Virus record (IMG/VR): IMGVR_UViG_3300044491_000733
Span: 1-25,701 of that record
Direction: 5' to 3' (one strand)
Length of the DNA stretch: 25,701 bases
Origin: a virus
Lineage: Duplodnaviria > Caudoviricetes
Shown: in pieces, positions 2,971-24,357 of the stretch
How positions within the stretch are numbered: the first letter of the stretch is position 1
Layout of the letters: every line of letters starts with the position of its first letter
Program-made: the position numbers and the translations under genes
The notes under the pieces: model-generated
Seen by the model: only the letters and a program-made list of their open reading frames with translations
The model's database searches: none
What the model was told of the DNA's origin: nothing

Positions 2971-3162
2971 ATGAACAGATACGATCACCTACTTAAATCA
3001 TACCGCGAGCAAAAAATGAGAGAACGCAAGGAAAAGATCCTTATGAAAACTCGTAGCGAAGTAAACGTGTATGGAAATGGTACAAGTGGATATACTGTTA
3101 CAAACGGACCAAATAGTGGTAAAGTTTTGAAACATATATCTGTTAATCATAATAATAATTAA
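2971..3162 (+). CDS. Small basic hypothetical protein (63 aa) downstream of the glutamine riboswitch
   Basis: Strong AAGGAG RBS at 2959-2964; 10 K/R in the first 28 residues; directly follows the aptamer. Confidence 0.75.
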   Translation: MNRYDHLLKSYREQKMRERKEKILMKTRSEVNVYGNGTSGYTVTNGPNSGKVLKHISVNHNNN

Positions 3163-3179: not shown

Positions 3180-3209
3180 GGTTGACTTTATATCTAAAGA
3201 TGTTATATT
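3180..3209 (+). promoter_or_regulatory. Sigma70-type promoter driving the orphan structured RNA
   Basis: TTGACT (3182-3187), 16 nt, TATATT (3204-3209), with an extended -10 TG at 3201-3202 and an A/T-rich upstream tract. Predicted start about 3216. Confidence 0.7.
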
Positions 3210-3215
3210 AAGTAC

Positions 3216-3432
3216 ATAAGCAACAGAAGAGTAATTAACTTTTGTTTATAGTGCAAGGAAGAGGCCTTTACCAGAAGGGTCTAACTTGACTGTCCAGGGG
3301 TGGTACCCAGGCTTGGTAGTAGAAATACGCTGAGTCACATCGCACTAACCCGCGGGGACAGGTTGTACGGTTTTGAAATGGTATTTCGGTCCGTACTTGT
3401 AGGTGTACCCAAGTCCTACCTATTTTGCTTAT
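3216..3432 (+). ncRNA. Putative ~215-nt structured non-coding RNA, family unassigned
   Basis: No ORF in the track; 52% GC over 3251-3420 (88/170 by hand count) against AT-rich flanks. The ends pair (ATAAGCAA 3216-3223 / TTGCTTAT 3425-3432), there are at least five internal helices, and it is bounded by a promoter and a terminator. Confidence 0.75.
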
Positions 3433-3437
3433 ACTTT

Positions 3438-3462
3438 AAAAAGACGCTTCGGCGTCTTTTTT
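3438..3462 (+). terminator. Rho-independent terminator closing the ncRNA
   Basis: AAAAAGACGC-TTCG-GCGTCTTTTT-T: perfect stem with C(UUCG)G tetraloop and U-tract. Confidence 0.92.
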
Positions 3463-3494
3463 CTTGACTTAAAATCCTTTATATTGTATTGATG

Positions 3495-3501
3495 ATAAAT
3501 A
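3495..3501 (+). promoter_or_regulatory. T4 late-promoter-like box (ATAAATA) starting the virion gene cluster
   Basis: Downstream of the terminator and 88 nt upstream of the ATG at 3590. Confidence 0.6.
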
Positions 3502-3589: not shown

Positions 3590-3964
3590 ATGGGACGACC
3601 TATTAATAAAAGAAACTTTGGTGCCTTAGCAGATGGTACAAATATTACAGTAAATGTAAAAGTTGGTGCTAACAGTGCTACAGATCAAGGTGTGATTTTA
3701 TCACAAAGATCAGTAAATAAATTCAACTGCGACGATGATAAAACACTTGGAGGAAACACAGGTGTTTGTACACTTGTTGCTAAAGCAAGTGGATCGCTAG
3801 CCGCTGACGAAATGTCAATTAACGGTATCATTACAGCTGACGGTTCGAGTGTATGGGTAACAAAGTTATATAATAGAACATGCAGAGACGAAAACAACAA
3901 TAGATATACTTGGAGCATCGCAGATGATTCTTCAGTATCTTATCTAGAACTTGTTGCTATCTAA
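3590..3964 (+). CDS. Hypothetical protein, probable virion component (124 aa)
   Basis: AAGGAG RBS, late-type promoter, beta-rich composition, first gene of the structural cluster. Confidence 0.7.
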   Translation: MGRPINKRNFGALADGTNITVNVKVGANSATDQGVILSQRSVNKFNCDDDKTLGGNTGVCTLVAKASGSLAADEMSINGIITADGSSVWVTKLYNRTCRDENNNRYTWSIADDSSVSYLELVAI

Positions 3965-14523: not shown

Positions 14524-17500
14524 ATGGCAGAATTTAAACTAAGTAGAATAAGATTTAATTGGAAGGGCTCCTGGTCCGGTGGTCAAGATTATATTGTTGA
14601 CGATATGGTCGAATATATCGGTTACACGTATGTTTGTTTACGTACACACAGCGCAGGATCATTTACAAATGATTTAGCTGGAACTGATGTTACACCAGCA
14701 AAACCTAAATGGAAAAAACAAAGTGAAGGTGTTACATGGACAGGAGTTTGGACAGTAAGTACAGACTACGGTGTAGGTAACATTGTAAAATATGGAGCTA
14801 GTATCTACCAATGTACTGAAGGACATACTTCTGCCGCAACATTTAGTTCAGGTACAGACGGACTAGTTGCTGATATTGGAAAATGGAAAGTTGTTGCTGT
14901 ATCTTCAGCAGATTGGAAATACAACTGGACTATTAATACATTATATAGAATTAACGACTTAGTAAGATATAACGGTAAAGTTTATAAAGCAACAGCACAG
15001 CACGTTTCGGCTGCAAATACAAACTTAGGTCTAGAAGCTAATCAAAATGACTGGGAAGTATTGTCAGATAGTGACACCTGGAGAGCTGATTGGGCAATTG
15101 GTACACGTTATCGATTAAATGACATTGTTAAGTACGGTGGCTATGTTTACAAATGTATTGTAGGACACACTTCAGCAGATAACGCAACGCTTGGGCTTGA
15201 AGAAGATCAGTCTAAATGGGATATTGTGTATGACGGAGTTGAATACGTTACAAGCACCAACGATGATACAGGTGTAACTTCAGGTTTTTGGCAAGCAGAA
15301 TACAGATATAAAAAGAATGACATTGTTAAACGAGGCGGAAACATTATGCGTTGTTTGGTCGGCCACACTTCAGGCGACGGCGATGATGCATTTTACAATG
15401 ATTATAATTCTAATTATTGGGAAATTTGGCTACCAGGATCAACATACGACGAAGCCTGGGCAGACAATGTATACTATCAGCCAAACGACTTAGTGTTGTA
15501 CGGTGGTTACATTTACAAAGCATTAACATTTAATGTAGGATTAGAACCTAGTAATTATCAAGGAACTGATTGGAATCTTACATTTGAAGGATATAGATTT
15601 AGATACGACTGGAATAACCCAGGTCCAGAAAATGATAGTACAATTACAGATTATAAAACAGGTGATGTAGTTAGATTATCGGGTAGTTTATATATTGCTA
15701 TTCAAGATAGTACAGACTTACAACCAGACAATTGGCCTGATTATTGGGAAAAGATTTCTGAGGGTAGACAATATCGTAATACTTGGGAAGATAATATTGA
15801 ATATTATCAAGGAGATATTGTTGTATGGCAAGGAACATCATATGTATGTACAGCAAATCACTACTCAAGTGAATCTGCTTCAAGACCTGACCAAGACGTA
15901 GAACAACCGGATCAAAATTATTGGAAAATTATGATCCTTGGTACACGTACTAATAAACTAGCAAGACTAGGTGATTTAAAAACTTTTGAAGATCAAGATT
16001 CGACAGCAATTGATACACAACGTTTAGCAATTGGCAGTACTGGACAAGCATTAAGAGCAACTTCAGGACTACCAACTTGGGACAGTTTAGATTTACAAGA
16101 AAATGTTTATTATGTTTCACGTAACGGAATCGACGAAACAGCATCTGGCGGCAGCTTGAACGCACCATTTAGAACTGTAAGATTTGCTATGAATTATCTT
16201 CTACAAGATGAGCCAAATAGAGTTGGCGCAGGAGCAACTGTTAAGGTTATGGGCGGAGACTTTGCTGAAATATTACCAATTAGTATTCCTTCAAAAGTAG
16301 CATTAGTTGGTTCAGAATTAAGATCAACAACTATACGTCCAGCAGTTCAAGGCGAAGATATTGTATTAGGTGAAAGAATTAATTTACACGGAATAATCCA
16401 GCCTCAGATTGAGCTTACTGTTCCTGATAATAATGCTAGACTTGATATGTTTAGAGTTAGAAACGGTTGCGGAATTAGAGCCCTAACACTTAGAGGTCTT
16501 CAAGGTAGTGCGTTATCTGGAAATAATGATTATGGTACACAAAGACCTATTCCAGGCAATGCGTTTGTATCTTTAGATCCAGGCGCTGGTCCAGATGATC
16601 AAAGTGTGTGGGTATCAAATAAATCAACATATGTTCAAGGTGTTACAACAATCGGCGACAAATGTATTGGTATGAAAATTGATGGAGCGTTACATAATGG
16701 CGGTAACAGATCAATTGTTGCTAACGACTTTACACAAGTTATTAGTGATGGTATCGGATACTGGGCAACTAATAGAGGACGTTCAGAATTAGTTAGTGTG
16801 TTTACATATTATTGTCATATTGGCTATCTTGCTGAAAATGGTGGTATTTTACGTGCTACTAACGGTAATAACTCATATGGTAAATTTGGTAGTGTATCAG
16901 AAGGATTTGACACAACTGAAACTCCACAAGTAGCTGTAGTAGACAACCAAAGCGGAGAAGCAACAGTTGACGAAGTTTGGGCAGACGGTAATCAAATTTT
17001 TGCTCTTGCTTATACTAACACAGGACAAACATATACTGGTGCTACAACATCTGTTACACAAGCATCAGGTACTGATTTACTTATGAAGTATGACGAAATT
17101 AGACAAGGTGCTATATCAAGAATCGACTTAGCAATACCAGACGATAGTACAAATGTCGGCGGCAATGGCTTTAAAAGTTTTTCAAACACAGCACAAGGTG
17201 GTGATCTAAGTACCATTACTTTAGCGGCTTCAGAAGTTCGTACAAAAGCACAACTTCTAGGTATGAGAATTTTAATTAAAGAAGGTGCTGGAGCAGGACA
17301 ATATGGCTATATTGCTAATTATAACGCATCTACAAAGGTAGCAACAGTTTATAAAGATAGTGACAGTCAACCTGGATGGGACAATATTGTTCCAGGCAAA
17401 GACAATGTTCTTACACTAAACGGAACTACTGTTTACGACTACGAACCAAGAGTAACTATTGAATCGCCAACCTTTACCAAAGCTGACAGAAATGTTCAAG

Positions 17501-19464
17501 TTGGGTCACATGATATCGGATACAGTGATACATTAGGAATGTGGTATTATGCTCCAACAGGAACAAATGATTGGTACACGTCTTTAGATACTAGTGTATG
17601 GACACAAAATGAAACAGCGTATGCTAGATCATATGTTTCATTTGCTAAAACAGGTTCATTATTGCTAGGATTGTCTAACGGGTCTGATCAATTAGTTTTT
17701 TCAAACGATGGTAGTACTTTTGACCATTCAACATTACCATTAAGCACAACTTGGAAAAAAGTTGCTGTTGGCGGCGAATTAGGTGATACAATTATTTGTC
17801 TTGCTACAGGAAACGCAAATGCTTATGTACAACAAACAGAAACAGCAAGTGATTCTACAGTAATTGCTAGTGATGCTTGGACAGTTGCAGCAACTGGAGC
17901 ATCTGATACTAATTGGGTAGGTCTAGCTTATGGCGCAGGAAAATGGATTGCAATTTCAGAAGATGGAACTACAGTTATTTCAACAGACAATGGTGTAAGT
18001 TGGTCTTCAGGAGCCGCAGTTACACCGCAAGCACCGGAAGTTTATAATGATATTGCTTTTGGTAATAATGCTTGGGTAGCTACAATGGCACAATCAGATC
18101 GAGTAATTTACAGTCACAACGGAACAACCTGGAGTGATTCACAAGTAGTTGGTGATTCCGGGCGTGAAAACTGGGTAGTTGGTTATACCGGTGGATTGTT
18201 CCACTTAGTAAGTTCAACAGGAACTACAGCATCAAGTCATAACGCAAAATATTGGCAAATTAGAGATTCAAACGCAGGTATGACTAGTATTGCTGGAGGT
18301 TATCTAGCTAGTAAGCCGACATTCGTAATGATGAATGACGCATCAAGTACAGCACACGTTTATACAGGTGGCGCAAGAGCTTGGGCAAGAGCAGAAGTTT
18401 CAAATGGTAAACTTAGTTTAATTAAGATTTATGATCCAGGTAGTGGATATATTACAACTCCAACAGTAACAGTTGAAGATCCAGAAGAGTATGGCGAGCC
18501 GTACTTTGCTGTAGACATTAATGATGGTGTTTTACCTCAGCCAATTTTTTATAACAGAGGTACAGGATATCAGAGTGCTCTTATTAAAATAACTGGCGAC
18601 GGTTTTGGAGAAGAATTACAAATTGGTAATACTATGAAAATTAATGGAATTAGTGTTGTACCAGGACCAGGAGCAAACGTTGTGTTTGCTGGAAATGAAA
18701 CAGTATATAGACTAGTTAAAGTTAATTCGCAAACCGGAGTAGCACCAAATATTAGTATTACATTCCAGATATCTCCAACACTAGGAAGATCAACGGCTCC
18801 TTTACATAATACAACAACAACTATACGTGAGCGTTATAGTAGTTGTAGATTAACAGGACACGATTTCCTGGATATTGGTACAGGTAATTTAACAGAAACA
18901 AATTATCCGACATTATATGTTGAAGGACAATCACCCGCTAATGATACAGTACAAGCAAATGAAATTGTTGAGTCTAATGGTGGACGAGTGTTCTACACAA
19001 GTACTGACCAAGATGGTAACTTTAGAGTTGGCGAATTGTTTAGAGTTTCACAGGCACAAGGTGGAGTTACTCTAAGTGCTGACTTCTTTAACTTAGAAGG
19101 ATTAGATGAAATTAGACTAGGTGGAATTAGAGTCGGCGGAACACAGGCTGTTATTAGAGAATTTAGTACAGATAATACATTTGTTGCTAATAGTGATAAT
19201 ATTATTCCAACACAACGAGCATTAAAGGCATATATTGAAAACAGATTTACAGGCGGTGGATCAAACTTGTTTACTAACGAGTTAACAGCAGGTCAGCTTA
19301 ATTTTAAAGAAAGCACCTGGGCTAACACAGCCGGATCAAATAATTCAGAAGCAATGGCGTCTGTAGACACAGACTTTATAATTAACGGACCACTAGGCGG
19401 CGGCTTAGCAGGATTAAATTTATTCCTGTCAGCTCGAATTGAACGAGATGACTTTAACGGATAA
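14524..19464 (+). CDS. Giant virion fibre/adhesin-like protein B1 (1646 aa): 8 CBM5/12-like repeats, beta-helix region, Asp-box propeller-like insert
   Basis: Eight W...W....Y..(N/G)D.V.Y.G..Y.C...H.S repeats at the N-terminus; YYVSRNGID...APFRTV; Asp-box-like SNDGSTF, STDNGVSW and SHNGTTW. Confidence 0.78.
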   Translation: MAEFKLSRIRFNWKGSWSGGQDYIVDDMVEYIGYTYVCLRTHSAGSFTNDLAGTDVTPAKPKWKKQSEGVTWTGVWTVSTDYGVGNIVKYGASIYQCTEGHTSAATFSSGTDGLVADIGKWKVVAVSSADWKYNWTINTLYRINDLVRYNGKVYKATAQHVSAANTNLGLEANQNDWEVLSDSDTWRADWAIGTRYRLNDIVKYGGYVYKCIVGHTSADNATLGLEEDQSKWDIVYDGVEYVTSTNDDTGVTSGFWQAEYRYKKNDIVKRGGNIMRCLVGHTSGDGDDAFYNDYNSNYWEIWLPGSTYDEAWADNVYYQPNDLVLYGGYIYKALTFNVGLEPSNYQGTDWNLTFEGYRFRYDWNNPGPENDSTITDYKTGDVVRLSGSLYIAIQDSTDLQPDNWPDYWEKISEGRQYRNTWEDNIEYYQGDIVVWQGTSYVCTANHYSSESASRPDQDVEQPDQNYWKIMILGTRTNKLARLGDLKTFEDQDSTAIDTQRLAIGSTGQALRATSGLPTWDSLDLQENVYYVSRNGIDETASGGSLNAPFRTVRFAMNYLLQDEPNRVGAGATVKVMGGDFAEILPISIPSKVALVGSELRSTTIRPAVQGEDIVLGERINLHGIIQPQIELTVPDNNARLDMFRVRNGCGIRALTLRGLQGSALSGNNDYGTQRPIPGNAFVSLDPGAGPDDQSVWVSNKSTYVQGVTTIGDKCIGMKIDGALHNGGNRSIVANDFTQVISDGIGYWATNRGRSELVSVFTYYCHIGYLAENGGILRATNGNNSYGKFGSVSEGFDTTETPQVAVVDNQSGEATVDEVWADGNQIFALAYTNTGQTYTGATTSVTQASGTDLLMKYDEIRQGAISRIDLAIPDDSTNVGGNGFKSFSNTAQGGDLSTITLAASEVRTKAQLLGMRILIKEGAGAGQYGYIANYNASTKVATVYKDSDSQPGWDNIVPGKDNVLTLNGTTVYDYEPRVTIESPTFTKADRNVQVGSHDIGYSDTLGMWYYAPTGTNDWYTSLDTSVWTQNETAYARSYVSFAKTGSLLLGLSNGSDQLVFSNDGSTFDHSTLPLSTTWKKVAVGGELGDTIICLATGNANAYVQQTETASDSTVIASDAWTVAATGASDTNWVGLAYGAGKWIAISEDGTTVISTDNGVSWSSGAAVTPQAPEVYNDIAFGNNAWVATMAQSDRVIYSHNGTTWSDSQVVGDSGRENWVVGYTGGLFHLVSSTGTTASSHNAKYWQIRDSNAGMTSIAGGYLASKPTFVMMNDASSTAHVYTGGARAWARAEVSNGKLSLIKIYDPGSGYITTPTVTVEDPEEYGEPYFAVDINDGVLPQPIFYNRGTGYQSALIKITGDGFGEELQIGNTMKINGISVVPGPGANVVFAGNETVYRLVKVNSQTGVAPNISITFQISPTLGRSTAPLHNTTTTIRERYSSCRLTGHDFLDIGTGNLTETNYPTLYVEGQSPANDTVQANEIVESNGGRVFYTSTDQDGNFRVGELFRVSQAQGGVTLSADFFNLEGLDEIRLGGIRVGGTQAVIREFSTDNTFVANSDNIIPTQRALKAYIENRFTGGGSNLFTNELTAGQLNFKESTWANTAGSNNSEAMASVDTDFIINGPLGGGLAGLNLFLSARIERDDFNG
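18986..19031 (+). repeat. 46-nt exact repeat shared with 23915-23960
   Basis: GAGTGTTCTACACAAGTACTGACCAAGATGGTAACTTTAGAGTTGG occurs in both B paralogs. Also a 38-nt exact match, 18871-18908 vs 23818-23855. Confidence 0.9.
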
Positions 19465-19466
19465 TG

Positions 19467-19473
19467 ATAAATA
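19467..19473 (+). promoter_or_regulatory. T4 late-promoter-like box (ATAAATA)
   Basis: Intergenic, 27 nt upstream of the ATG at 19501. Confidence 0.55.
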
Positions 19474-19500
19474 TGTATAATACCAAGAACGGAGCAAAAA

Positions 19501-22500
19501 ATGGCAGAAATTAAACTCGGTAGAATTAGATTTATTTGGAAAGATGCATGGACTGCATCCGCTGAATATCTAAAAGATGATGTAATTAGATATGGCGGTA
19601 GAACATATGTTTGTGTAACCGGACACACAGCTACCACTAATTTCTACAATGACTTAGTAAACTGGAACAAGTTTAGTGACGGTACAGAATGGAAAGCAGA
19701 CTGGACAACAACTACATTTTACAAAATTAACGATATTGTAAGATATGGTGGTATTATCTATATCTGTAATACTGGGCACACAGCGCAGGCTGTACTTGAA
19801 GATGACCAATCAAAATGGGATCAATTTGCTACATCCATTGACTGGAAAGATACATGGACTGCAGCAACAGTTTATAAAGCAAACGACTTAGTAAAATATG
19901 GCGGAAATATTTACATTTGTAATACTGGTCACACTGCCGCGGCCACAAATGCTCTAGGACTAGAAGCTGATATTTTAAAATGGGATTTATTTTCCGAAGG
20001 TCAAGATTGGAAACAAAATTGGGCAACAACAACTCGTTACAAAGTTAACGATATTGTCAAATACGGTGGCACGGTCTATATTTGTAATACAGGACACACA
20101 TCTGCTTCAACAGCAACATTAGGACTTGAAGACGATCAGTCAAAATGGGATTACTTAAACCAAGGTATTGAGTACAAAGGTGAATGGACTAATAACACAC
20201 GTTATAAAATTAATGACGTTGTACTTTATGGTGCTACACTTTGGATTGTTACTACTGACCACACATCAGTTGCTACAAATCCTGACTCACAGCTAGGTAC
20301 ACTACAAGCTGATATTGCTAATTGGGACAAATTTGTTCCTGGTATGGAATTTGAAAACACATGGTCAGGATACGAAAGATATCAACCAGGCGACTTTGTA
20401 ACATACGGTGGTAACCAATATGTTGCTAATGATAACGTATATGCTGAAGTTCCTTCAGGTAGCACAAAATGGGACCTAGTAACAACAGGGTTCAATCTTA
20501 GAGGCGACTGGGGCGACGATTCAACAAATACAGAATATAAAATTGGTGATGTTGTAAGATTAGGCGGTTATACATATGTATGTACAGCTGATCATCAAAA
20601 TCAGCGTCCACCAAATACAACCTATTGGGCTAGACTAAATCAAGGTATTGAATGGAAAGATACTTGGACTGATGCTACTCTTTATGACGCAGGTGATGCA
20701 GTTCGCGAAGGACTAATTAGTTATGTTTGTATACTAGCTCACACATCAGCGGCAGGAAATAAACCATCAGTTGATTCAGCAGGTACATATTGGAATAATC
20801 TAGCATCAGGTTCTGAAGAAAGTGCCTTAACTACTGAAGGTGATATTCTCTATTACAGTGGTTCAGGTCCAGCAAGACTTCCAATTGGTTCAGAAGGACA
20901 AGTATTAAGTGTTGCTTCTACAGGAATTCCAGAATGGAAAGATTTTGCGACAACACCAGATGTATACTATGTTGCTACTAACGGTGTAAATAATCCGTAT
21001 CCAACTAACGGCGGCACATTAGATCGTCCATGGAAAACAATTCGTTATGCGTGTGAAGAAATTGAAAAAGGTCCACGTTATCCAAATGCAGCATCTTTAC
21101 TACAAGAAAATAGAATGTTTATAGCATACGAAACTGCTAAATGGGCAAAGAGACAGATTATCACACAAACAGCCCCGTTCTTTATTGGATTTAGTTTTGA
21201 TGAAGCGGCTTTCCAAAGATTAGCAGGACTTGCTGTTGATTATGCTGTAAGAGATTTAAAGCAGGGCGGAAACAGATATATTAGAGATTTAGCACAGTTG
21301 ATTAAAGATCAAACTGATGGTGATTATTTTGATGTAGGTTCAGAAACACAAAATACTGCGGCTTTAGACTTTGTAGTTGTTCTAGTAGAAAATGTACTAG
21401 ATAGTGCTACACCGGCGGCAGATTATCAAGCATTAGATGGTGTTGCATCAGGTGATAGATATTTACAGATTAAAGATGCTACAAGAGTTGAAGAAGCAGG
21501 TGCTTTAGCAGACATTACAGAGTCAATAACAAATATTAAAAATGCAGTTTCTTTAGGAGCAGGATTTACTATTCCAAAACTAGTAAAAACACATAAAGTT
21601 GTATTTGTTAAAACAGGAACCTACACAGAAGTTCTTCCAATTAGAGTACCGGAAAGAACAGCAGTTGTAGGTGACGAATTGCGTTCAACAAGAGTTGAGC
21701 CAGCAGGGTCAGTTACAGACTCAGGCGATGCAACTTATTCATTAGCTGGAATACTACATATGAAAAGTATTTTAAGCGATATTGTTGAAGGTAATGATAT
21801 TACTGAACAAACTGGCAACACATTAGTACAAAACGATTCAAACCCGTTAAGTACTTCAGCAGTAGGTGCTATTGTTCAAGAATTAGCACAAGAGTTGTAT
21901 GATAAAATTGACTATGACATTAACGGAGCATCAGGCGATTCAACAGCACCAGTATTTAGAGGAACTAATACGTTTGTTGATAATCAAGACAAATTTGCAG
22001 CAATGCGTTTATTGCTACTTAACAAAGATTATATTGCTAGAGATGTTACAAAATATATTGAAGTCAACTATCCTTCATATACATTTGATACAGCGGCATG
22101 TGAAGCTGATGTTAAACACTACATTGACGCATTCATTTATGACTTAGAACAAAGTTATACAGGCGGCGGCACAGAAGGTAGTAACTATGCTACACTGATA
22201 GCAGGTCAAATGTATTCAAATAGTGTTAACGGAAGTACAAAAGAAAATATGTACTTACTGCGTGATGCTACAGGTATTAGAAATCAGTCATTAGGTGGAC
22301 TAAGCGGAACACTAGGATCAGCAAATGCATATGGAACTAAGCGTCCAGATACAGGAGCGTATTGTTCATTAGATCCAGGTTGGGGACCAGACGACGATCG
22401 TGTATGGATTCAAACACGATCTCCATACGTACAAGGTGTATCAAACTTTGGTACAGCGTGTGTTGGACTTAAAGTTGATGGAGATTTACACAACGGTGGT

Positions 22501-24357
22501 AACGACTCGATTGTTGCTAACGACTTTACACAAATCTTAAGTGATGGTATTGGTGCGTGGGTAACTAACCTAGGTAGAGCAGAACTTGTTAGTATCTTCT
22601 CATACTACGGACATATTGGTTATCTAGCTGAAAACGGCGGTAAGATACGTGGTACTAATGGTAACTGTTCATACGGTGATCATGGTGCGGTATCAGAAGG
22701 CGTTGACGCAACAGAGATTCCAATTACAGGAACTGTCAACAACAGAAAACTAGAAGCACAGATTGGTAGAGCATTAACAGACGGTAGTGAAATTATTCAC
22801 TTTGAATACACTAACGCAGGTAATAACTATACAACCGCTACATATCAAATTAGTGGAAATGGTTTTGGTGCTGTTGTTGATAGTGCTAATGTTGTAAACA
22901 ATGGTATCTTTGAAGTAAGATTAAAAAATCCAGATGATGGATCTACTTTTAGTGAAACTGATTTAAACAATGATGGGTTACTAAATGACGCAGACACAGT
23001 TGGAGGTCGTGGCTACGAAACAAGTGCTAATACAGCACAAGCAGGTAGTACAACAACTATTACATTGTCAAACACTGAAACAGCAAACAATACAAAATAC
23101 GTTGGTATGAGAATTGTTATTACAGCAGGTGTTGGCGCTGGACAATATGGTATTATTACTGCTTATAATTCTGGTACAAAGATAGCAAATATTGCTAAAG
23201 AATCAGATAGCACAGCAGGTTGGGATAACTTCCACCACAGTAATGCTGTAGAAGCTACACTTGACGCTACAACAACTTATAGTATTGAGCCAAGAGTACA
23301 AATTACAGGTGGCGGCGGCTCAGGCGCGATTGTTAGAGCAAAGGTTGATACTGGTAAAATTACACAGTTCTTTATTATTAATCCAGGTAGTGGATATACA
23401 TCTACTCCGACATTAACAATTACAGATCCAAGTGAAACACTACTATGTCCAACAGAAGTAAGAGTCGGAAGTGGTGTACTAACACAGCCTACATTTAGTG
23501 CTAGAGGTACAGACTTTGAAACAGCAAGTGCTACAGTAAGTGGCGACGGATATGCTGATTCATTCCAAGCACAGAACTTCTTAAACGTAGAAGGATTATC
23601 AGATATTCCAACAGAAGGATCTAATTTCCAATTAGATGGAGATGATAGATACTTCAAAGTTGTATTTGTAAGAGAACTGTTAGGTAGCGCAGGCAACTAT
23701 AACTGTAATTTACAAATTTCACCAGATACAGGAATTGAAAACGCTCCGGCACATGGCACATCAATTACATTACGTAGACGTTATTCACAAGTACGTTTAA
23801 CAGGACATGATTTCTTAGATATTGGTACAGGTAATTTAACAGAAACAAATTATCCAAACACACCAGTTTATCCAAATGATCCAAATGATGAAGTTAAAGA
23901 GTTTGGCGGAGGAAGAGTGTTCTACACAAGTACTGACCAAGATGGTAACTTTAGAGTTGGACGTTTGTTTAACGTTGAGCAGTCTACAGGTAGTGCGAGT
24001 TTGAATACAAGCGCATTTAGTTTAGCAGGTCTACAAGAACTGTCACTAGGTGCTGTTGGACTTGGACAAGGCGGAGCAACAATTAATGAATTTAGTACTG
24101 ACGGAACAATGAGTGCTAATAGTGATAACGTTGTACCTACGCAAAGAGCAATTATTACATACATCAATTCACAAATTGGTGGAGGTAGTAGCTCTCTGAA
24201 CGTTAACGCAGTAACAGCAGGTAAAATAAATATCACAGGAAATACAATTTCAACTACAGATAATTCACCAATTACAGTTACAACAGGTATGAACTTTAAT
24301 GGCGGTATAAGTGGATCACCAGTAGCAATGAGTTATTTCTTAACAAGTAAAACTTAA
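19501..24357 (+). CDS. Giant virion fibre/adhesin-like protein B2 (1618 aa), paralog of 14524..19464
   Basis: MAEIKLGRIRFIWK parallels MAEFKLSRIRFNWK. Eight CBM5/12-like repeats; shared SIVANDFTQ, RLTGHDFLDIGTGNLTETNYP and GGRVFYTSTDQDGNFRVG blocks. Confidence 0.78.
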   Translation: MAEIKLGRIRFIWKDAWTASAEYLKDDVIRYGGRTYVCVTGHTATTNFYNDLVNWNKFSDGTEWKADWTTTTFYKINDIVRYGGIIYICNTGHTAQAVLEDDQSKWDQFATSIDWKDTWTAATVYKANDLVKYGGNIYICNTGHTAAATNALGLEADILKWDLFSEGQDWKQNWATTTRYKVNDIVKYGGTVYICNTGHTSASTATLGLEDDQSKWDYLNQGIEYKGEWTNNTRYKINDVVLYGATLWIVTTDHTSVATNPDSQLGTLQADIANWDKFVPGMEFENTWSGYERYQPGDFVTYGGNQYVANDNVYAEVPSGSTKWDLVTTGFNLRGDWGDDSTNTEYKIGDVVRLGGYTYVCTADHQNQRPPNTTYWARLNQGIEWKDTWTDATLYDAGDAVREGLISYVCILAHTSAAGNKPSVDSAGTYWNNLASGSEESALTTEGDILYYSGSGPARLPIGSEGQVLSVASTGIPEWKDFATTPDVYYVATNGVNNPYPTNGGTLDRPWKTIRYACEEIEKGPRYPNAASLLQENRMFIAYETAKWAKRQIITQTAPFFIGFSFDEAAFQRLAGLAVDYAVRDLKQGGNRYIRDLAQLIKDQTDGDYFDVGSETQNTAALDFVVVLVENVLDSATPAADYQALDGVASGDRYLQIKDATRVEEAGALADITESITNIKNAVSLGAGFTIPKLVKTHKVVFVKTGTYTEVLPIRVPERTAVVGDELRSTRVEPAGSVTDSGDATYSLAGILHMKSILSDIVEGNDITEQTGNTLVQNDSNPLSTSAVGAIVQELAQELYDKIDYDINGASGDSTAPVFRGTNTFVDNQDKFAAMRLLLLNKDYIARDVTKYIEVNYPSYTFDTAACEADVKHYIDAFIYDLEQSYTGGGTEGSNYATLIAGQMYSNSVNGSTKENMYLLRDATGIRNQSLGGLSGTLGSANAYGTKRPDTGAYCSLDPGWGPDDDRVWIQTRSPYVQGVSNFGTACVGLKVDGDLHNGGNDSIVANDFTQILSDGIGAWVTNLGRAELVSIFSYYGHIGYLAENGGKIRGTNGNCSYGDHGAVSEGVDATEIPITGTVNNRKLEAQIGRALTDGSEIIHFEYTNAGNNYTTATYQISGNGFGAVVDSANVVNNGIFEVRLKNPDDGSTFSETDLNNDGLLNDADTVGGRGYETSANTAQAGSTTTITLSNTETANNTKYVGMRIVITAGVGAGQYGIITAYNSGTKIANIAKESDSTAGWDNFHHSNAVEATLDATTTYSIEPRVQITGGGGSGAIVRAKVDTGKITQFFIINPGSGYTSTPTLTITDPSETLLCPTEVRVGSGVLTQPTFSARGTDFETASATVSGDGYADSFQAQNFLNVEGLSDIPTEGSNFQLDGDDRYFKVVFVRELLGSAGNYNCNLQISPDTGIENAPAHGTSITLRRRYSQVRLTGHDFLDIGTGNLTETNYPNTPVYPNDPNDEVKEFGGGRVFYTSTDQDGNFRVGRLFNVEQSTGSASLNTSAFSLAGLQELSLGAVGLGQGGATINEFSTDGTMSANSDNVVPTQRAIITYINSQIGGGSSSLNVNAVTAGKINITGNTISTTDNSPITVTTGMNFNGGISGSPVAMSYFLTSKT

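Follow-up and report, generated by a model that had tools for sequence, protein, structure and literature searches.

A divergent phage manA RNA, likely a free-standing small RNA and predicted to oligomerise through two loop pairs

Identity of the RNA

The window analysed here is a stretch of 25,701 nucleotides from a Caudoviricetes virus (IMG/VR record IMGVR_UViG_3300044491_000733), a 25.7-kb piece of a record with a CheckV completeness of 9%. On its + strand, at 3224-3429, it carries a folded RNA which is a divergent member of the manA family and not a new RNA class. On balance we favour the reading that it is its own small RNA of about 250 nt, predicted to oligomerise via two loop pairs, with a role in trans, putatively as a multivalent decoy or scaffold, rather than as a switch on the next gene. 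The core matched Rfam model RF01745 over the full length of the model (positions 1-192 of 192) with an E-value of 2.4e-12 and 57.1 bits against a gathering threshold of 55.2, i.e., the score lies just 1.9 bits over the cut-off. The manA covariance model gave no match in 14 control genomes. The sequence-only reading had placed the RNA in an unassigned class and named an Rfam search as the check; the significant full-length match removes the novelty of the class. Its remark that the RNA was not recognisable as a tRNA, tmRNA, RNase P, 6S, SRP or small self-cleaving ribozyme agrees with the Rfam search, in which none of these was found in the window, and ARAGORN detected neither tRNA nor tmRNA there. 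GOLLD and ROOL gave no Rfam match in the window, and the RNA is not a member of either family. Only 18 of 40 homologues scanned reached the Rfam cut-off, so much of the manA branch to which the window belongs is invisible to a standard scan. Among five long related contigs searched with Rfam, a manA copy was reported in three and none in the two others that hold the RNA by sequence, which again reflects the limited reach of the manA model.

The manA motif was described from marine samples, cyanophages and gamma-proteobacteria in potential 5' UTRs, and was rated 'Y' as cis-regulatory and 'y' as riboswitch in the article by Weinberg et al. (2010, PMC2864571). It has been listed since then as a cis-regulatory riboswitch candidate, and the Rfam type of RF01745 is 'Cis-reg'. 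The label is repeated in the text of the recent preprint on manA cages (Ren et al., 2026, bioRxiv 10.64898/2026.07.01.735769), where manA is still called a putative cis-regulatory 5' UTR element and neither biological role nor gene context is given. We found no description of manA as a stand-alone gene in the literature consulted; Additional files 1 and 3 of Weinberg et al. (2010), with motif notes and gene contexts, and the preprint supplements may bear on it. Relative to the article and preprint texts, the free-standing gene organisation and the co-evolving loop pairs are new, while the RNA family itself is known.

In the parts of the RF01745 seed alignment that were compared, seed rows and window copy are alike in the P1-P9 helix order, in a GUGGU-type L5 with an ACC-type L7, and in their occurrence in aquatic phages; complementary L8 and L9 were also found in seed rows from two parts of the alignment. 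The window copy differs from these rows by a long P6 with a bulge, where theirs is short, and from RF01745 by an added closing stem, P0. It also differs in setting, having its own promoter and terminator within a jumbo-phage capsid region, whereas the manA copies described in the published texts stand before sugar, nucleotide or photosynthesis genes.

Homologues and their distribution

We gathered 317 loci: 36 through the downstream gene, 70, 9 and 120 through three sequence patterns, 80 through the capsid gene, together with the window locus and Pelagibacter phage Mosig. A profile search found the RNA in 221 of the loci, 205 of them full-length and 127 distinct, and 79 remained after thinning at 93% identity. 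These 79 non-redundant homologues are 43-93% identical to the window copy, and the set is biased to the window's own branch, from which the patterns were drawn, and is not representative of the cyanophage-type members that make up most of the Rfam seed. Matches to the 120-locus pattern were true in 117 cases, and the search tool estimated that about 690 stored IMG/VR stretches hold that pattern. The nine-locus pattern gave a single true match, and a search among GenBank phages with a second, more divergent homologue gave none.

The RNA is an accessory gene, as many close capsid relatives are without a copy: manA is present in nine of the 41 nearest capsid-gene relatives for which 1.5 kb or more of sequence was available downstream. 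In all 17 carriers among the 80 capsid-gene loci it lies on the same strand, 93-906 nt after the capsid match. A pattern scan of 185,579 cellular genomes returned 15 matches, four of them true (three in metagenome bins). The true matches are probably binned phage contigs, since two of the four adjoin an 85%-identical phage capsid gene. One manA and capsid locus was seen on two long contigs (L328 and L332, 153 and 335 kb) of a single metagenome bin labelled as a marine bacterium; the two contigs are probably of jumbo-phage origin and were placed in a cellular genome by the binning.

An unannotated manA copy scoring 64 bits was found in the cultured SAR11 phage Mosig (MT647606.1 108158-108391, equal to L038:4001-4234). 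It is 74% identical to the window copy over 233 nt and has a promoter; no terminator was detected at this copy, and a rubrerythrin gene starts about 20 nt downstream. Mosig on SAR11 strain HTCC1062 offers a cultured system for studies of manA expression and assembly.

Secondary structure and covariation

The fold was evaluated on a structure-blind MAFFT alignment of the 79 homologues, with 60 base pairs in the manA arrangement. For these pairs, 80.9% of alignment cells were paired compared to 63.3% after shuffling, and the covariation score was 0.485 against 0.177 for shuffled alignments and at most 0.178 when the pairs were slid. Changes on both sides of the pair, i.e., compensatory changes, were recorded in 49 of the 60 pairs, which supports the earlier proposal of a functional structured RNA under selection. 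The folding z-score was -3.05 with the terminator and just -1.91 without it, so the case for structure rests on covariation and not on energy.

All helices lie on the + strand. The variable 5' hairpin P1 (3222-3246) was placed from the Rfam match, folding and the alignment together. P2 (3248-3251/3420-3423) forms the outer core helix, is 97.2% paired and has both-side changes in three of its four pairs. P3 is divided into P3a (3254-3257/3285-3288, 98.1% paired) and P3b (3263-3268/3276-3281, 67.3% paired), capped by loop L3, and the internal loop between them is nearly invariant in the 79 rows. P4 (3290-3295/3356-3361) is 94.9% paired with both-side changes in all six pairs, and closes a four-way junction with P5 (3297-3308, loop L5 at 3300-3305), the long P6 (3310-3336) and P7 (3340-3355, loop L7 at 3344-3351). 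P6 ends in a GAAA loop at 3322-3325, and a GNRA loop occupies the aligned place in 67 of the 79 rows. On the 3' side follow P8 (3365-3396, loop L8 at 3379-3383) and P9 (3399-3419, loop L9 at 3404-3414). Pairing reached 85-100% in P2, P3a, P4, P7, P8a and P9, and was lower (55-75%) in P3b, P6 and the inner part of P8, where the alignment shifts. Thirty-two positions are at least 95% conserved in the 79 rows, many of them unpaired.

Six of the seven helices named in the sequence-only reading are kept across homologues: 3262-3269/3275-3282, 3290-3295/3356-3361, 3310-3336 with its GAAA loop, 3365-3396, 3399-3419 and, limited to the window's branch, the closing stem P0 at 3216-3223/3425-3432, which joins both ends of the RNA. 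Among the 79 rows, the 24 closest have a P0 duplex energy between -4.4 and -8.6 kcal/mol, with compensatory changes in L233, L041, L038 and L222, and in 54 of the 55 remaining rows the duplex is weaker than -4 kcal/mol. The seventh helix, TAGTGC/GCACTA (3249-3254/3342-3347), was abandoned: 62.4% of its cells pair against 64.0% after shuffling, and none of its pairs changed on both sides. Its TAGTGC side is part of P2 and of an invariant linker, and its GCACTA side (3342-3347) is part of P7 and L7. The pseudoknot that had been proposed between this helix and CTGTCC/GGACAG falls with it, and the latter is the ordinary nested helix P4. The present fold adds P1, P2, P3a, P5, P7 and the loop pairs L5/L7 and L8/L9, which were absent from the earlier helix list.

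The tract had also been called free of open reading frames, and this is not strictly so, as a 55-aa frame with a GTG start spans 3300-3467. As a gene it was rejected, having no Pfam or PHROG match and being open in just 12 of the 79 homologues. The minus strand was likewise rejected as the RNA strand; it folds worse (z-score -1.08 versus -1.91) and has no promoter or terminator at its ends.

Transcription signals and gene context

A sigma-70-type promoter is located on the + strand at 3182-3209, with the -35 element TTGACT at 3182-3187, a 16-nt spacer and an extended -10 element TG-N-TATATT at 3201-3209, and transcription is predicted to start near 3214-3216. An intrinsic terminator at 3438-3462 (+ strand) consists of a C(UUCG)G hairpin at 3438-3461 and a U-tract to 3462, and lies wholly 3' of the manA core. 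Both signals had been proposed earlier and were confirmed in the sequence. The predicted transcript, manA RNA plus terminator on the + strand, is about 249 nt with predicted ends at 3214 and 3462. One terminator scan did not list the terminators of manA or the capsid gene, since A-U pairs extend their stems over the U-tracts; a separate scan listed that of manA.

A promoter of like arrangement was found in 59 of the 79 homologues at a fixed distance, ending 31-47 nt before the core anchor, where 4.1 rows were expected from shuffles. A hairpin with U-tract starting 14-33 nt after P9 was found in 42 of the 75 rows with enough DNA, against 0.8 expected, and both signals together in 40 of 75; the predicted transcripts of these 40 are 241-281 nt. 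Terminator hairpins of different homologues often show no sequence relationship, unlike the conserved core, so what is kept is the signal and not the letters. This conservation of promoter and terminator among relatives supports the earlier suggestion of an independently transcribed RNA, with transcript ends as predicted from these signals.

The region upstream of manA is insulated by a terminator of the major capsid gene (2426-2455, + strand, 3' of the Gp23-type gene at 1249-2412), and a terminator between capsid gene and manA was present in all 38 rows with the end of a capsid gene upstream. Downstream, the next gene has a late-promoter-like motif of its own at about 3494-3501 (+ strand). 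This 7-base motif, which we take to resemble the T4 late promoter, occurs on the + strand at 2501, 3495, 5859, 9963, 14500 and 19467, before the genes starting at 2519, 3590, 5891, 10086, 14524 and 19501, so that six of its seven + strand copies in the window stand just before genes; overall it is under-represented in the window, with eight copies found and 13 expected. It is probably the late promoter of the window phage. Among 32 homologues with a called downstream frame, 27 have such a motif after the terminator. The downstream frames fall into about 12 families of unrelated structural and hypothetical genes, as called by a crude procedure; in some rows, that of the window among them, the frame it chose is spurious.

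Twenty rows have no detected promoter, and in eight of these manA directly follows an alphaproteobacterial-type tmRNA or tRNA gene; in L145 it fills the gap between tRNA-Met and tRNA-Gly. We read this adjacency as another way to release a free manA RNA. In L078, L093, L169, L189 and L173 the copy comes directly after a permuted alphaproteobacterial-type tmRNA, with tRNA-Gly between the two in L173, and this placement suggests joint transcription and processing.

RNA libraries provided a view of presence only, not of level, strand or ends, as the 8 of 23 listed RNA runs that were compared were all available as contigs. Runs with parts of the region came from marine, seawater, salt-marsh, aquatic or viral metagenomes. 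Relatives of the manA RNA were present in X1, X2, X3, X4, X9, X10 and X19. Some of their contigs extend past the 3' end, by 207 letters in X1 and, in X3, within a record of 1239 nt. In one contig of 841 nt the end of a relative's capsid gene is joined to manA. Both kinds of contig may stem from DNA or read-through. Two relatives' contigs in X1 had a depth of 443 and 169 on manA against about 2 on the flanks, which, coming from other strains and from contigs chosen for holding the stretch, is to be read as presence only. Enrichment of manA in the virus-fraction RNA libraries was not seen, with almost no cover on manA in X13 and manA covered like its flanks in X9 (a weak test).

The established label would make the RNA a cis-regulatory leader, a riboswitch that controls the downstream gene through ligand-dependent read-through of the terminator. 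Besides the Rfam type and the ratings by Weinberg et al. (2010), this is favoured by the 33 of 75 homologues in which no terminator was detected, some of them running straight into a gene, by the RNA contigs past the 3' end, and by the neighbouring glutamine riboswitch (RF01739, 2897-2948, + strand, 55.9 bits, directly 5' of a 63-aa frame), which shows that the window phage uses such switches. The arrangement at the locus speaks for something else. No expression platform overlapping or competing with the conserved core was found; the terminator stands apart, varies in sequence, and is predicted by an equilibrium model to be formed (p > 0.9) in the full transcript of 39 of the 40 rows with both signals. 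The typical published context, the 5' UTR of a protein gene, is not that of the window, where the terminator is followed by a separate promoter-like motif and the next gene's own leader RNA. The unrelated genes downstream and the L145 copy between two tRNAs count against a switch as well. We regard the riboswitch as improbable here; own promoter, own terminator, the capsid terminator upstream and the next gene's own motif argue against the cis-regulatory label for the window's branch. A branch with its own promoter and a constitutive terminator is genomic evidence that the manA family can work as a free RNA.

Loop-loop pairs

Positions 3380-3383 in L8 of the window can pair with 3406-3409 in L9, and L5 is complementary to L7 over just 3 bp. 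We used an alignment-free test that compared, for each row, loop pairing with the true partner and with permuted ones. For L8/L9 it gave a z-score of 10.1 from 50 distinct loop pairs. L5/L7 reached 2.4, no higher than unrelated loop pairs at 2.3-3.4 (L3/L8 3.4, L3/L5 2.9, L5/L9 2.8, L7/L8 2.3), and four more pairs ranged from -1.8 to 1.5. As values of 2-3.5 arise from relatedness and the shared GGU/ACC theme, just L8/L9 stands out in this test. L8 and L9 occur in nine distinct complementary sequence types, and the weakest match of 3 bp was the sole one in five rows (L142, L218, L247, L205 and L150). In the 32 rows where the L8 core is unlike the commonest one, it pairs with L9 of the same row in 24, with L7 in 10 and with L3 in 7, and three of the L8/L9 misses do pair in the alignment-free test. 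L5/L7 is 85.4% paired in the alignment, with G-C replaced by A-U in 18 rows; where the L5 core departs from the commonest form (24 rows), it pairs with L7 of the same row in 20, with L9 in 14 and with L3 in 4. When mapped on a tree from which the loops had been left out, the L8 core shows 15 changes and the L5 core seven. These comparisons argue strongly for L8/L9, and moderately for L5/L7, as real crossing pairs under selection. Pairing of L3 with L8 or L5 was also considered, L3 and L8 being complementary over 5 bp in the window; it is at most a tentative candidate, because L3 matched just 7 of the 32 variant L8 cores and 4 of the 24 variant L5 cores.

Both L5 and L8 of the window read UGGUA, and in bacterial RNase P a GGU loop captures the ACCA 3' ends of tRNA. 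The UGGU loops could likewise hold the ACCA ends of tRNAs or tmRNA, making the RNA a tRNA trap or processing guide, and the several copies that adjoin tRNA or tmRNA genes would suit such a role. The loop core differs from GGU in L8 of 32 and L5 of 24 of the 79 rows, with a matching change in L9 or L7 of the same RNA. A tRNA end cannot follow changes in the loop, which counts against the trap, and we consider it very improbable.

Five manA RNAs were reported to form closed particles of 8, 10 and 60 copies built from pentamers, as seen by cryo-EM at about 3 mg/mL RNA and 10 mM Mg2+ in the text of Ren et al. (2026, bioRxiv 10.64898/2026.07.01.735769). The intermolecular kisses of the 60-mer are L5-L7' and L8-L9', and the contacts of the decamer are the L6 GNRA loop, L5-L7' and L3-L8'. 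With loop numbers matched by helix order, the window RNA has the cage modules described there: complementary L5/L7 and L8/L9, a GNRA loop at L6, and complementarity between L3 and L8. The decamer contact L3/L8 is without covariation support in the window's branch (7 of 32 variant rows). For the window RNA the oligomeric state is a prediction from sequence, whereas the cages of Ren et al. were observed.

Loop pairing read from sequence looks alike for contacts within and between molecules, and covariation fits intramolecular pairing equally well. The stand-alone RNA could accordingly act as a monomer in which L5/L7 and L8/L9 are internal pseudoknots, the invariant bases form a metabolite or protein pocket or a catalytic site, and cages result from high concentration in vitro. 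A weakly supported 'pseudoknot?' was drawn in manA by Weinberg et al. (2010), which we take to be L5/L7. The conserved unpaired positions suit a pocket or active site, and the cages were obtained at the RNA concentration given above from related manAs whose oligomers range from 8 to 60 copies, a number which may not be under selection. All five manA constructs described in the preprint text did form closed oligomers via L5/L7- and L8/L9-type loops, and L8 is borne on a long stem beside the 5-bp P9, a geometry which we judge awkward for an intramolecular kiss. The monomer appears to us a rather unlikely account, to be taken more seriously than the riboswitch. The co-evolving interface loops are genomic evidence for selection on loop contacts, and the homologues supply natural orthogonal loop pairs for swaps.

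Possible function

The RNA is real and functional-looking, and its function in the window phage can be proposed as follows. Host sigma-70 polymerase would start near 3215 and stop at the hairpin ending at 3462, very probably with no ligand-dependent choice. The ends of the RNA of about 250 nt would be tied by P0 and the core folded round the four-way junction. Judging from the solved relatives, L5-L7' and L8-L9' would then pair between molecules and, together with the P6 GNRA loop, give pentamers and pentamer-based cages, with contacts from L5, L8 and the GNRA loop to L7, L9 and a helix in adjacent copies. The scaffold mentioned among the roles in the sequence-only reading would fit the cage assembly reported for the manA family by Ren et al. 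(2026) in the preprint text. It is possible, though less probable than the preferred reading as a whole, that manA is no riboswitch and that phages encode in it a small RNA which assembles with itself into cages of RNA alone in infected cells. In the window's branch this RNA would have its own promoter and terminator, and elsewhere it would be excised from between tRNA or tmRNA genes. With clipping loops that co-evolve through nine or more sequence types, assembly as seen in vitro would on this view be the form that selection maintains and that does the work, whether as decoy or as container.

More tentatively still, the particle may display its invariant internal-loop bases many times and titrate a host or phage protein, e.g., an RNA-sensing or stress protein; titration of this kind would be in keeping with an accessory role, the gene being absent from many close relatives. 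A decoy or scaffold role could be argued, with similar reserve, by analogy with GOLLD and ROOL. Like manA as read here, these are phage-borne free RNAs often found beside tRNA genes, and they build RNA-only cages via loop contacts according to the text of Kretsch et al. (10.1101/2024.12.08.627333). They are larger, at 659 and over 800 nt, compared to about 220 nt for the window manA.

Surroundings of the RNA

The window capsid protein is 66-70% identical to capsid proteins of phages with genomes of 285-470 kb, among them Sinorhizobium phage Phosso, Vibrio phage 2.275.O and Pseudomonas phage PA5oct. Between the capsid gene and manA are an S-adenosylmethionine decarboxylase gene (2519-2890, + strand) and the 63-aa basic frame behind the glutamine riboswitch (2971-3162, + strand, match to phrog_32989). 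The decarboxylase gene has sigma-70-like and late-like promoter signals of its own and is inserted directly after the capsid terminator. The stretch behind the capsid gene seems to be a favoured site for accessory modules.

Rfam gave three matches in the window, all around the RNA described here: the glutamine riboswitch, manA and freshwater-2. The glutamine riboswitch was also found upstream of manA in nine of 60 related loci scanned. Freshwater-2 (RF02980, 3519-3592, + strand, 64.3 bits) is separate from manA and forms the leader of the 124-aa gene 3' of it (3590-3964, + strand); its 3' end coincides with the start codon, and its 5' side is preceded by the late-promoter-like motif. The same leader before the 124-aa gene recurs in many relatives, including ones which have no manA. 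Long baseplate- and fibre-like genes follow downstream of the 124-aa gene. Two of these genes, in tandem on the + strand within 14524-24357, encode fibre-like proteins of about 1,630 aa, each with six CBM_5_12 carbohydrate-binding stretches near its N-terminus.
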